NCBI RefSeq assembly: GCF_003790525.1
Contig: NZ_CP033635.1
Source: Escherichia coli
Lineage (GTDB): Bacteria; Pseudomonadota; Gammaproteobacteria; Enterobacterales; Enterobacteriaceae
Strand: one strand, 5' to 3'
DNA: 64,000 nucleotides
Position 1 is the stretch's first letter; the number at the start of each line of letters is the position of its first letter. Of the stretch, positions 12,382 through 16,569 are shown one piece after another. Below the pieces are notes generated by a model. It was not told the DNA's origin. It made no database searches and saw nothing but the letters and a program-made list of their open reading frames with translations. The position numbers and the translations under genes were made by a program.

Positions 12382-14037
12382 ATGACTCATCTTCCCCACT
12401 GGTGGCAAAACGGCGTTATCTACCAGATTTATCCAAAGAGTTTTCAGGACACCACGGGTAGCGGCACCGGCGATTTACGTGGCGTTATCCAGCGCCTGGA
12501 CTATCTGCATAAACTGGGCGTTGATGCCATCTGGCTAACCCCCTTTTATGTCTCTCCCCAGGTCGATAACGGTTACGACGTAGCAAATTATACGGCGATT
12601 GATCCCACCTATGGCACGCTGGACGATTTTGACGAACTGGTGACACAGGCAAAATCGCGTGGGATTCGTATCATTCTCGATATGGTGTTTAACCATACCT
12701 CTACCCAACATGCCTGGTTTCGCGAGGCGCTGAACAAAGAAAGCCCTTACCGCCAGTTTTATATCTGGCGCGATGGAGAACCAGAAACGCCACCGAACAA
12801 CTGGCGTTCAAAATTCGGTGGTAGTGCGTGGCGCTGGCATGCGGAAAGCGAACAGTACTATTTGCATCTCTTTGCACCAGAACAGGCGGATCTCAACTGG
12901 GAGAATCCAGCGGTACGCGCAGAGCTGAAAAAAGTCTGTGAGTTCTGGGCCAATCGTGGGGTCGACGGGTTGCGCCTGGATGTGGTGAATCTGATCTCCA
13001 AAGATCCGCGTTACCCTGAAGACCTGGATGGCGACGGGCGTCGCTTCTACACCGACGGGCCACGAGCACACGAGTTTTTGCACGAGATGAACCGCGATGT
13101 GTTTACGCCACACGGGTTAATGACCGTAGGTGAAATGTCCTCCACCAGCCTTGAGCATTGCCAGCGATACGCGGCACTGACAGGCAGTGAATTGTCGATG
13201 ACCTTTAATTTTCATCACCTGAAGGTCGATTATCCCGGTGGTGAGAAATGGACGCTGGCTAAACCTGACTTTGTGGCGTTGAAAACATTGTTCCGCCACT
13301 GGCAACAAGGAATGCACAACGTGGCATGGAATGCCTTGTTCTGGTGTAACCACGATCAGCCGCGCATTGTTTCTCGCTTTGGTGATGAAGGTGAATACCG
13401 CGTGCCTGCGGCAAAAATGCTGGCGATGGTGCTGCATGGCATGCAGGGAACGCCGTATATCTACCAGGGCGAAGAGATTGGCATGACCAACCCACATTTC
13501 ACGCGCATTACTGACTATCGCGACGTGGAGAGCCTCAATATGTTTGCCGAGCTGCGCAACGATGGTCGTGATGCCGACGAGTTATTGGCAATCCTCGCCA
13601 GTAAATCCCGTGACAACAGTCGCACACCCATGCAATGGACCAACGGCGATAATGCCGGGTTTACGGCTGGCGAACCGTGGATTGGCCTGGGCGATAACTA
13701 TCAGGAAATCAACGTAGAAGCAGCGCTGGCCGATGAGTCCTCGGTGTTTTACACCTACCAAAAGTTAATCGCACTGCGTAAGCAAGAAGCCGTCCTGACA
13801 TGGGGCGATTACCAGGATCTGCTGCCAAACAGCCCTGTATTGTGGTGCTATCGCCGTGAGTGGAAGGGGCAAACCTTGCTGGTCATTGCCAACCTTAGCC
13901 GTGAGACCCAACCCTGGCAGCCAGGGAAAATGCTCGGCAACTGGCAGCTTGTGATGCATAACTACGAAGAAGCCTCACCACAACCCTGTGCCATGACTTT
14001 ACGGCCTTTTGAGGCTGTCTGGTGGTTACAGAAGTAA
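12382..14037 (+). CDS. treC: Trehalose-6-phosphate hydrolase (GH13), 551 aa
   Basis: ORF 12235..14037; ATG at 12382 gives MTHLPHWWQNGVIYQIYPKSF, a typical GH13 N-terminus; the longer ORF-track start would overlap the treB 3' end. Confidence 0.93.
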   Translation: MTHLPHWWQNGVIYQIYPKSFQDTTGSGTGDLRGVIQRLDYLHKLGVDAIWLTPFYVSPQVDNGYDVANYTAIDPTYGTLDDFDELVTQAKSRGIRIILDMVFNHTSTQHAWFREALNKESPYRQFYIWRDGEPETPPNNWRSKFGGSAWRWHAESEQYYLHLFAPEQADLNWENPAVRAELKKVCEFWANRGVDGLRLDVVNLISKDPRYPEDLDGDGRRFYTDGPRAHEFLHEMNRDVFTPHGLMTVGEMSSTSLEHCQRYAALTGSELSMTFNFHHLKVDYPGGEKWTLAKPDFVALKTLFRHWQQGMHNVAWNALFWCNHDQPRIVSRFGDEGEYRVPAAKMLAMVLHGMQGTPYIYQGEEIGMTNPHFTRITDYRDVESLNMFAELRNDGRDADELLAILASKSRDNSRTPMQWTNGDNAGFTAGEPWIGLGDNYQEINVEAALADESSVFYTYQKLIALRKQEAVLTWGDYQDLLPNSPVLWCYRREWKGQTLLVIANLSRETQPWQPGKMLGNWQLVMHNYEEASPQPCAMTLRPFEAVWWLQK

Positions 14038-14048
14038 ATCTTCGCTAA

Positions 14049-14079
14049 GCCCCGGTAATGCCTGTCATTCCGGGGTTTT
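14049..14079 (+). terminator. Intrinsic terminator after treC
   Basis: gccccgg ... ccggggc stem followed by TTTT (14076-14079). Confidence 0.6.
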
Positions 14080-14222
14080 GCCTGTCAGCATGTTGTTTTT
14101 GTTGATTTTATAATCAAAAAATTCATTAAAAAATTTACATATCGCTGTAGCGCCCGTCATCCGTACGCTCTGCTTTTTACTTTGAGCTACATCAAAAAAA
14201 GTTCAAACATCCTTGATGCAAA

Positions 14223-14270
14223 GCACTATATATAGACTTTAAAATGCGTCCCAACCCAATATGTTGTATT
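14223..14270. promoter_or_regulatory. Two NrdR-box-like sites upstream of nrdDG
   Basis: gcactatatatagac (14223-14237) and cccaatatgttgtatt (14255-14270), centres about 3 helical turns apart, in an AT-rich promoter region. Confidence 0.6.
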
Positions 14271-14430
14271 AATCGACTATAATTGCTACTACAGCTCCCC
14301 ACGAAAAAGGTGCGGCGTTGTGGATAAGCGGATGGCGATTGCGGAAAGCACCGGAAAACGAAACGAAAAAACCGGAAAACGCCTTTCCCAATTTCTGTGG
14401 ATAACCTGTTCTTAAAAATATGGAGCGATC

Positions 14431-16569
14431 ATGACACCGCATGTGATGAAACGAGACGGCTGCAAAGTGCCGTTTAAATCAGAGCGCATCAAAGAAGCGA
14501 TTCTGCGTGCAGCTAAAGCAGCGGAAGTCGATGATGCCGATTATTGCGCCACTGTTGCTGCGGTTGTCAGCGAGCAGATGCAGGGCCGCAACCAGGTGGA
14601 TATCAATGAGATCCAGACCGCAGTTGAAAACCAGCTGATGTCGGGGCCATACAAACAACTGGCTCGTGCTTACATCGAGTACCGTCACGATCGCGACATT
14701 GAACGTGAAAAACGCGGTCGCCTGAACCAGGAGATCCGTGGTCTGGTCGAGCAGACCAACTCCTCGTTACTCAACGAAAACGCCAACAAAGACAGCAAGG
14801 TGATTCCAACCCAGCGCGACCTGCTGGCCGGGATCGTGGCTAAACACTATGCACGCCAGCACTTGCTGCCGCGTGACGTGGTGCAGGCACATGAGCGTGG
14901 CGATATTCACTATCACGATCTCGATTACTCGCCGTTCTTCCCGATGTTCAACTGCATGTTGATCGACCTGAAAGGCATGCTGACCCAGGGCTTTAAGATG
15001 GGGAACGCCGAGATTGAACCGCCGAAGTCGATCTCTACGGCAACCGCGGTAACTGCGCAGATTATTGCTCAGGTCGCCAGCCATATTTATGGCGGCACCA
15101 CCATTAACCGTATCGATGAAGTGCTGGCACCGTTTGTCACCGCCAGCTACAACAAACATCGCAAGACCGCGGAAGAGTGGAACATCCCGGACGCCGAAGG
15201 CTACGCTAACTCTCGTACCATCAAAGAGTGCTACGATGCCTTCCAGTCGCTGGAGTACGAAGTAAACACCCTGCATACCGCCAACGGTCAAACGCCGTTT
15301 GTAACCTTTGGTTTTGGTCTGGGCACCAGCTGGGAATCGCGCCTGATTCAGGAATCGATCCTGCGTAACCGTATCGCAGGCCTCGGTAAAAACCGTAAAA
15401 CGGCGGTGTTCCCGAAACTGGTGTTTGCGATTCGCGATGGCCTGAACCATAAAAAAGGCGATCCGAACTACGACATCAAACAGCTGGCGCTGGAGTGCGC
15501 AAGCAAGCGCATGTATCCGGATATCCTGAACTACGATCAGGTAGTGAAAGTCACCGGTTCGTTTAAAACCCCGATGGGCTGCCGCAGCTTCCTCGGCGTG
15601 TGGGAAAATGAAAACGGCGAGCAGATCCACGATGGTCGTAACAACCTCGGCGTGATCAGCCTGAACCTGCCGCGTATTGCTCTGGAGGCAAAAGGCGATG
15701 AAGCCACCTTCTGGAAGCTGCTGGATGAACGTCTGGTGCTGGCACGTAAGGCGCTGATGACCCGTATCGCTCGTCTCGAAGGCGTGAAAGCGCGCGTAGC
15801 CCCGATCCTCTATATGGAAGGTGCTTGTGGCGTGCGTCTGAATGCTGACGATGATGTTTCTGAAATCTTCAAAAACGGTCGTGCGTCTATTTCGCTGGGT
15901 TACATCGGCATCCACGAAACCATTAACGCGCTGTTTGGCGGCGAGCATGTGTATGACAACGAGCAGCTGCGCGCGAAAGGTATCGCCATTGTTGAACGTC
16001 TGCGTCAGGCGGTGGATCAGTGGAAAGAAGAAACGGGTTACGGTTTTAGCCTTTACAGCACGCCAAGTGAAAACCTGTGCGACCGCTTCTGCCGTCTCGA
16101 TACCGCTGAGTTTGGCGTGGTGCCGGGCGTGACTGATAAAGGTTACTACACCAACAGTTTCCACCTCGATGTGGAGAAGAAGGTGAACCCGTACGACAAG
16201 ATCGACTTTGAAGCGCCTTACCCGCCGCTGGCGAACGGTGGTTTCATTTGCTACGGCGAATATCCAAACATTCAGCACAACCTGAAGGCGCTGGAAGATG
16301 TCTGGGATTACAGCTATCAGCATGTACCGTATTACGGCACCAATACGCCGATTGATGAGTGTTACGAGTGTGGTTTTACCGGTGAGTTTGAGTGCACCAG
16401 TAAAGGCTTCACCTGCCCGAAATGTGGTAACCATGACGCCTCCCGTGTGTCGGTGACTCGCCGCGTGTGCGGATATTTAGGTAGCCCGGATGCGCGTCCG
16501 TTTAACGCTGGTAAGCAGGAAGAAGTTAAGCGCCGCGTTAAACATTTGGGGAATGGGCAGATAGGTTAA
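14431..16569 (+). CDS. nrdD: Anaerobic ribonucleoside-triphosphate reductase (class III), 712 aa
   Basis: N-terminal ATP-cone (VMKRDGCKVPFKSERIKEAI) and C-terminal glycyl-radical/Zn region (CxxC ... CPKCG). Confidence 0.96.
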   Translation: MTPHVMKRDGCKVPFKSERIKEAILRAAKAAEVDDADYCATVAAVVSEQMQGRNQVDINEIQTAVENQLMSGPYKQLARAYIEYRHDRDIEREKRGRLNQEIRGLVEQTNSSLLNENANKDSKVIPTQRDLLAGIVAKHYARQHLLPRDVVQAHERGDIHYHDLDYSPFFPMFNCMLIDLKGMLTQGFKMGNAEIEPPKSISTATAVTAQIIAQVASHIYGGTTINRIDEVLAPFVTASYNKHRKTAEEWNIPDAEGYANSRTIKECYDAFQSLEYEVNTLHTANGQTPFVTFGFGLGTSWESRLIQESILRNRIAGLGKNRKTAVFPKLVFAIRDGLNHKKGDPNYDIKQLALECASKRMYPDILNYDQVVKVTGSFKTPMGCRSFLGVWENENGEQIHDGRNNLGVISLNLPRIALEAKGDEATFWKLLDERLVLARKALMTRIARLEGVKARVAPILYMEGACGVRLNADDDVSEIFKNGRASISLGYIGIHETINALFGGEHVYDNEQLRAKGIAIVERLRQAVDQWKEETGYGFSLYSTPSENLCDRFCRLDTAEFGVVPGVTDKGYYTNSFHLDVEKKVNPYDKIDFEAPYPPLANGGFICYGEYPNIQHNLKALEDVWDYSYQHVPYYGTNTPIDECYECGFTGEFECTSKGFTCPKCGNHDASRVSVTRRVCGYLGSPDARPFNAGKQEEVKRRVKHLGNGQIG

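Follow-up and report, generated by a model that had tools for sequence, protein, structure and literature searches.

The leader of the Escherichia coli nrdDG operon contains an exact 11-bp direct repeat, which raises the question of whether the repeat is a regulatory site in its own right or part of something larger. A preliminary description of the 64,000-nt stretch of DNA analyzed here (the window) had called the repeat a candidate protein-binding or leader-structure element distinct from the NrdR-box-like sites further upstream. The repeat lies in the treC–nrdD intergenic region (window 14038–14430), with treC and nrdD on either side according to the RefSeq annotation. The FNR-binding 54-mer of PMC10425943 corresponds to window 14178–14231 with one T/C difference, and the NrdR-binding 57-mer (57 bp) of PMC12176259 corresponds to window 14219–14275. 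Because the centers of the FNR sites are quoted as −64.5 and −33.5 (PMC10425943), the transcription start site (TSS) was placed at A14253, resulting in the following map.

14182–14195, plus strand: FNR site 2, TTGAGCTACATCAA, matching a published oligonucleotide
14213–14226, plus strand: FNR site 1, TTGATGCAAAGCAC, matching a published oligonucleotide
14223–14238, plus strand: NrdR box 1, inside the match to the published NrdR oligonucleotide
14240–14245, plus strand: nrdDG −10 element, TAAAAT, from the sequence and the inferred TSS
14253–14430, plus strand: nrdDG 5′ leader, 178 nt, from the inferred TSS
14254–14269, plus strand: NrdR box 2, separated from NrdR box 1 by a 15-bp linker
14319–14327, minus strand: DnaA box 1, TTATCCACA, perfect consensus match (9 of 9), leader positions +67 to +75
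14328–14395, plus strand: 68-bp spacer between the DnaA boxes, variable in sequence, with length and predicted fold-back kept
14350–14360, plus strand: repeat copy 1, ACCGGAAAACG, exact match
14371–14381, plus strand: repeat copy 2, ACCGGAAAACG, exact match
14396–14404, minus strand: DnaA box 2, TTATCCACA, perfect consensus match (9 of 9)
14407–14415, minus strand: weak DnaA box, TTAAGAACA, 2 bp from DnaA box 2
14422–14425, plus strand: nrdD Shine–Dalgarno (SD) sequence, GGAG, from the sequence
14431–16569, plus strand: nrdD coding sequence (anaerobic ribonucleoside-triphosphate reductase), ATG at 14431

Between 14140 and the nrdD start, K-12 differs from the window only by one T/C at 14202, upstream of the TSS, and a 403-bp query from the treC–nrdD region finds matches in 5425 of 5426 complete E. 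coli genomes.

The repeat itself is exactly as it had been described: the two copies are 21 bp apart from start to start, with GAAACG between them at 14360–14365, and they lie 81–71 and 60–50 bp upstream of the nrdD ATG. They fall in the 5′ leader, at +98 to +108 and +119 to +129 from the inferred TSS, and are indeed separate from the two NrdR boxes. Similarity between the copies reaches 17 nt at 88% identity (14344–14360 versus 14365–14381), but Tandem Repeats Finder reports no array over the repeat at a score of at least 30, the 21-bp units being only ~71% alike. A single close 11-mer repeat somewhere in 64 kb is not remarkable, because a non-overlapping 11-mer recurs within 50 bp at least once in 45% of dinucleotide-shuffled windows of this size. 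Five such places exist in the real window, exceeding the shuffle expectation of 0.9. For the 393-bp intergenic region, and likewise for the 68-bp spacer on its own, the chance of such a repeat is ~0.5%. The other four close direct repeats of at least 11 bp are found at 556–593, 755/800, 7019/7064, and 63850/63883, the first of them being a 14-bp repeat with a 24-bp period, TTTAGATTGATCGC, at 556 and 580. Six copies of the nrdD 11-mer with one mismatch occur elsewhere in the window, all inside long open reading frames, as would follow from CCG-GAA-AAC being common E. coli codons.

The dominant feature of the region, absent from the preliminary description, is a pair of perfect DnaA boxes that bracket the repeat. 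Both match the consensus TTATCCACA, which was taken from PMC11317965, on the minus strand, so that the plus strand reads TGTGGATAA at both boxes. Read on the minus strand, window 14394–14415 is the published double DnaA box tTTAAGAACAggTTATCCACAg, which joins box 2, its strong half, to the weak box. The whole E. coli genome has only 32 perfect DnaA boxes (PMC11317965), two of which are thus in the nrdD leader, and a DnaA ChIP-seq peak with 62-fold enrichment has been found at nrdD (PMC11317965, Wade laboratory). The peak has its summit at 4462739, which corresponds to window ~14362, halfway between the boxes, at a resolution too coarse to part the repeat from the boxes ~40 bp to either side. 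K-12 coordinates were anchored on the published Term-seq 3′ end of treC (K-12 4463010, window 14091), which coincides with the end of the treC terminator hairpin GCTAAGCCCCGG / CCGGGGTTTTGC at window 14044–14091, a hairpin that is not listed by the promoter/terminator scan. Published proteomics show that the NrdD and NrdG proteins go up when DnaA-ATP or DnaA is low. It is established in the literature that DnaA bound inside a transcription unit blocks elongating RNA polymerase, and DnaA control of transcription has been described as poorly understood (both PMC11317965). The nrdD region joins a known class. As at nrdAB, purH, polA, and mioC, the DnaA regulon sites with double DnaA boxes (PMC11317965), the flanks of the repeat consist of DnaA boxes, here two perfect TTATCCACA, one of which has a weak partner 2 bp away. 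Here too DnaA occupies the region in vivo, and the target operon encodes a ribonucleotide reductase, as nrdAB does. Unlike them, the repeat itself is no DnaA box, and the two nrdD boxes are found 77 bp from each other on the 3′ side of the TSS, enclosing a dyad-symmetric spacer of constrained length, an arrangement that does not appear in PMC11317965.

For a comparison across species, we fetched 80 Enterobacterales nrdD loci, of which 45 from Enterobacteriaceae were used for box spacing. Both DnaA boxes are essentially invariant across these 45. From start to start, 25 species have the boxes 77 bp apart, 18 have them 78 bp apart, and 2 have them 79 bp apart, whereas box 2 lies anywhere between 29 and 40 bp from the ATG. 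What lies between the boxes, by contrast, is the least conserved stretch of the leader: E. coli and Salmonella/Citrobacter share 63% identity in the spacer versus ~85% in nrdD. E. coli and E. albertii alone have two copies of the 11-mer (at least 9 of 11 matches); it is missing from all 39 other Enterobacteriaceae species, even though these retain the NrdR boxes as well as the DnaA boxes at their usual spacing. The spacers of E. coli and E. albertii are 92.6% identical, 2 of the 22 repeat positions and 5 of the 68 spacer positions having changed. Judged by sequence, the repeat positions thus change as fast as their surroundings. Because of this, and because copies are lacking outside these two species, the repeat is not a phylogenetic footprint, and the idea of a distinct protein-binding element is not supported.

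Variation within Escherichia tells less. An absence of the repeat from other E. coli leaders, which would have refuted the preliminary description, is not seen, in that 5422 of the 5425 genomes are at least 95% identical across the region, but they are too close to be informative, and the remaining three carry a divergent spacer that lacks the repeat. A search for spacer variation with a 128-nt query (14306–14433) showed 4903 of the 5425 genomes to be at least 99% identical. The three exceptions include N50 (L002), and a further Escherichia lineage (L004), with an nrdD gene 92.7% identical to that of the window, likewise has a divergent spacer and no repeat. This divergent allele (L002 600–690; L004 1388–1500) is 69% identical to the spacer of the window and closer to the Salmonella/Citrobacter type; it could stem from recombination or be a retained ancestral allele. 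The sampled E. coli SNPs, at 14315, 14365, and 14382, spare both repeat copies. The SNPs at 14365 and 14382 and the E. albertii changes at 14350 and 14381 fall at unpaired or terminal positions of the predicted fold described below.

What the spacer does keep, besides its length, is a predicted capacity to fold back on itself. We tested for this from base-pair probabilities, without an alignment, by counting for each of 37 dereplicated species how many pairs are expected to join the 5′ half of the spacer to its 3′ half. The mean is 16.3, compared to 9.5 ± 0.7 in dinucleotide shuffles, and 35 of the 37 species lie above their own shuffle median, although kinship among the species makes these statistics overstate the significance. 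Two control regions gave no fold-back signal in the same cross-pairing test. A skew in composition, with G enriched in the 5′ half and C in the 3′ half, accounts for some of this. Nevertheless, shuffling each half on its own yields only 12.7 ± 0.8, and chimeras whose 5′ and 3′ halves come from different species yield only 13.4 ± 0.5, with a maximum of 14.5. Since the signal survives both treatments, the predicted pairing indicates that the two spacer halves co-evolve to stay complementary. The reverse-complement strand gives an almost equal signal (15.6 versus 9.4), with the sense strand only slightly favored (23 of 37 species, p = 0.08), and an RNA hairpin and a DNA dyad are therefore indistinguishable. 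Other measures are weak, marginal, or null. The per-species z-scores of the spacer minimum free energy are weak (mean −0.78 forward, −0.32 reverse complement), and the E. coli spacer alone folds no better than shuffles (z = −0.36 as RNA, 0.04 as DNA). RNAalifold found no consensus pairs in a 41-species MAFFT alignment, where the variable spacer is not alignable by sequence. A hand-placed helix GGGAAG:CTTCCC is marginal, with 69% of cells paired versus 64–65% when the partner is slid by one column. A hairpin just upstream of box 1 is weak on both strands and null in the cross-pairing test.

In the predicted E. coli fold (boxes included), 14328–14354 pairs with 14372–14398, so that the outermost pairs enter box 2, and an A-rich loop of 17 nt is left at 14355–14371. 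The repeat is built into the tip of this structure. The CCGG of copy 1 (14351–14354) is predicted to pair with the CCGG of copy 2 (14372–14375) with a probability of ~0.95, this palindromic CCGG:CCGG forming the 4-bp inner stem of the hairpin. The AAAACG of copy 1 would open the apical loop, the AAAAC of copy 2 would form an internal bulge, and G14381 would pair with C14349. In close relatives, other sequences make up the inner stem at this point: the divergent Escherichia allele has CCCCG/CGGGG, C. youngae TGGC/GCCA, and Citrobacter R56 CUUUGG/CCAAGG. As far as the predicted structure goes, the direct repeat is thus best read as the palindromic stem of a hairpin plus a duplicated A-rich flank. 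The suggestion of a leader-structure element is borne out to the extent that the spacer of the repeat folds back in silico with the CCGG cores as its inner stem, but the conserved properties are those of the whole spacer and not of the repeat sequence. A role as intrinsic terminator or attenuator in E. coli was considered and rejected: the hairpin is followed by CAAUUUCUG with no U-run, and there is no plus-strand terminator-like site in 13900–14600.

We consider it likely that the repeat is a lineage-specific sequence within a spacer whose length and fold-back, but not sequence, are under selection, and that the functional unit is the whole DnaA module. The repeat is probably no regulatory site of its own, because it is confined to E. 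coli and E. albertii and sits in a fast-evolving spacer between conserved DnaA boxes. Salmonella has TTGGAAAAGA at the place of copy 1, and the divergent Escherichia allele has AACCGGGGCGC at that of copy 2. Since the spacer length is unchanged and relatives are partly similar at both positions, the most economical origin is a length-neutral one, and the two copies most likely became identical when local slippage or a length-neutral templated mutation acted on sequence that was already similar. The repeat would since then have been drifting at the neutral rate. A function newly evolved in Escherichia would be compatible with the lack of conservation. We weighed several specific roles against this reading.

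At the DNA level, the copies could be auxiliary low-affinity DnaA sites, or a phased A-tract bend, that aid contact or oligomerization of DnaA between boxes 1 and 2, as at oriC, datA, and DARS. The DnaA ChIP summit does map between the two boxes, and on the minus strand, where both boxes are also read, the repeat (TTTTCCGGT) has TT.TCC in common with the DnaA consensus. Yet TTTTCCGGT matches the DnaA box TTATNCACA (TT(A/T)TNCACA) at only 5 of 9 positions and lacks the critical CACA, and the copies, at offsets of 31 and 52 from box 1, are out of the 11-bp register of the boxes. Nor is there a DnaA-like signal at register positions across species, save for a weak box at +44/+45 in ~25% of them, E. 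coli not included. The A-tracts (A4, A6, and A4) start at 14355, 14365, and 14376, 10 and 11 bp apart, and a wedge model, validated on phased and unphased A-tracts, predicts a bend of ~53 degrees, above the 95th percentile of random 90-mers. Shuffles of the sequence itself, however, average 37 degrees (z = 0.8), and the mean z across species is 0.23, so that curvature is not conserved. On balance, we find an auxiliary role of this kind unlikely. A stricter version, an oriC-like array of DnaA sites in 11-bp register, was rejected, as neither the copies nor the other species fit the register. Alternatively, the repeat could be an Escherichia-specific operator in the leader for a regulator that recognizes direct repeats with a 21-bp period, such as the LytTR-type BtsR or YpdB. 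The period is that of the published BtsR site (ACCGCTTA-N13-ACCACTCA, yjiY oligonucleotide) and of the YpdB site, and both copies start with ACCG. Each copy nevertheless matches the BtsR motif ACC[G/A]CT[C/T]A (13-bp spacer) at only 5 of 8 positions, with the CTYA part absent, and +98 to +129 downstream of the TSS is an atypical position for activators of the BtsR/YpdB type. Salmonella, Citrobacter, and Enterobacter all have BtsSR but lack the repeat, and no published binding of BtsR or YpdB at the nrdD leader was found, which together make such an operator very improbable.

Placed in a transcribed leader and predicted to be largely single-stranded, the repeat could also act in RNA, its A-rich loop or bulge (AAAACGAAACGAAAAAA, AAAAC) or its GGA motifs being bound by Hfq (ARN motif), CsrA, ribosomal protein S1, or an sRNA, with an effect on how well nrdD is translated or how stable its mRNA is. 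The leader has seven GGA motifs, one of them in the SD, and A-rich apical sequence is also present in the Salmonella, Citrobacter, and divergent Escherichia spacers. In Klebsiella and Raoultella, on the other hand, the loop is GC-rich, so that A-richness is not conserved, and the leader has no Rfam match (a scan of 13500–15000 at E-values up to 10 returned only noise). Our literature search found no paper linking nrdD with RIL-seq or CsrA. The GGA of the repeat is preceded by CC rather than by the preferred A-N of CsrA sites, and nrdD does not appear in the supplementary tables consulted from an E. coli CsrA CLIP-seq study, in which the cultures were aerobic and nrdD little expressed. A CsrA site at the repeat is accordingly unsupported rather than excluded, because the CLIP data are aerobic, and we regard an RNA-level role of the repeat as a whole as a minor candidate of low probability. 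Finally, the repeat could be the coding part of a 28-codon upstream open reading frame (TTG at 14318 to TAA at 14404), as its 21 bp amount to 7 codons and the frame reads Pro-Glu-Asn … Pro-Glu-Asn. No stop interrupts this frame between its TTG, which overlaps box 1, and the TAA in box 2, and AGGTG lies six nucleotides upstream. However, only 6 codons of it are left in E. albertii and 12–17 in most species, its start codon is CTG in 14 of 48 species, the peptide is not conserved beyond the residues encoded by the DnaA boxes, and RefSeq has no gene annotated there. We therefore attach almost no weight to a coding role.

Returning to the DnaA module as the functional unit, published ChIP-seq has DnaA binding the boxes inside the transcribed region, where bound DnaA would most likely act as a roadblock that lowers nrdDG expression. 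The spacer would hold the boxes 77–79 bp apart and fold back, in RNA or in DNA. There are precedents for such an arrangement. In the DnaA roadblock or attenuation elements of asnC, guaB, and dnaA (cited in PMC11317965) and of the his leader (PMC10989985), DnaA boxes in a transcribed leader flank stem-loops as they do at nrdD, and the expected outcome is the same, namely less downstream transcription when DnaA is bound. The his leader has been proposed to be a 'DnaA-dependent riboswitch' (PMC10989985), but its boxes have two mismatches each and flank a ribosome-controlled attenuator with a U-run, whereas the nrdD boxes are perfect and the E. coli hairpin has no U-run. Like nrdD, oriC, datA, and DARS have several consensus boxes at defined spacing, and the DNA between them matters for building the complex. 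However, those clusters rely on IHF or Fis sites, or on arrayed 9-mers of low affinity with 2 bp between them, and neither kind is detectable in the nrdD spacer; an IHF core motif is found in 0 of 48 spacers. Within the same promoter region, the NrdR box pair resembles the DnaA pair in consisting of repeated elements with strictly conserved spacing (15 bp for NrdR), but the NrdR boxes are 16-bp, palindrome-like, and AT-rich, and the 11-mer, ~100 bp downstream, is unlike them.

More speculatively, the nrdDG leader may represent an Enterobacterales-wide module, consisting of a DnaA box, a fixed-length fold-back, and another DnaA box, that works as a DnaA-dependent attenuator in which a DnaA roadblock cooperates with a hairpin in the nascent RNA or the DNA. 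In this tentative scheme, the Enterobacteriaceae form has the −10, box 1, and box 2 at fixed intervals of 80 and 77–79 bp, and the form in Yersiniaceae and Pectobacteriaceae has a double box, a terminator-like hairpin, and an inverted box. If this were so, anaerobic dNTP supply would be coupled to the state of replication initiation, and the E. coli repeat would merely be the local sequence of the hairpin.

Taken alone, the repeat matters little, being a species-level quirk that should not be annotated as an operator. Its surroundings matter more: nrdDG, recently shown to be bound by DnaA, has two perfect boxes in its transcribed leader, their distances to each other and to the promoter being constant throughout a bacterial family, with spacer halves that are predicted to co-evolve. 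The boxes themselves are already known, having been shown by ChIP in 2024 and, reportedly, predicted by Torrents in 2007. The combination of a fixed box architecture with a co-evolving dyad spacer, however, appears not to have been described in the searchable literature, and it opens concrete ways to study DnaA control of anaerobic ribonucleotide reductase.

Several further observations were made in the comparison. In 44 of the 45 Enterobacteriaceae, 80 ± 1 bp separate the −10 (TAAAAT) from DnaA box 1, although the sequence between varies; this distance is as tightly held as the 77–79 bp from box to box. The leaders of loci L053–L080 (Hafnia, Edwardsiella, Yersinia, Serratia, Pectobacterium, Dickeya, Brenneria, and Budvicia) have a double DnaA box, TTATCCACA-N3-TCATCCACA, directly 3′ of NrdR box 2. 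Next comes a GC-rich hairpin that shows compensatory changes and often has a run of 4–5 U (as seen in Pectobacterium, Serratia, and Dickeya), and, past the hairpin, an inverted TGTGGATAA 55–57 bp from the first box (49 bp in Budvicia, L080). The whole sits ~30–140 bp upstream of nrdD, and by sequence these leaders look like a putative attenuator flanked by DnaA boxes. There are no DnaA boxes upstream of nrdD in L032 and L044 (or in L051, L052, L060, L077, L078, and L081); L032 and L044 simply have a short leader between NrdR box 2 and the SD. Such loci are natural loss variants that could be used as comparators. The weak DnaA-like 9-mer found 44–45 bp after box 1 in ~25% of species (for example, GATGAATAA, 6 of 8 specified positions) is carried by Salmonella, Citrobacter, Kosakonia, and others. 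It occupies alignment columns ~59–67, roughly in 11-bp register with both boxes, and E. coli has AACGAAAAA in its place.

The remaining observations concern the flanks of the leader. A Rho-termination region has been mapped in aerobic LB from ~14703 (K-12 4462398), ~270 nt into nrdD (eLife 2021, supplementary file 2), which suggests premature termination when nrdD translation is poor. Upstream, ~75 bp before FNR site 2, 14098–14121 holds a near-perfect palindrome, TTGATTTTATAATCAA, which is FNR/CRP-like, yet with half-sites 6 bp apart instead of 4. Lastly, a −10-like CTATAAT is present in E. coli at 14277–14284, ~9 bp 3′ of NrdR box 2. The element is kept in nearly all Enterobacteriaceae, as CTACAAT, CTATTAT, or CTACTAT in the others, and it could be a second promoter or part of the NrdR/RNA polymerase site.
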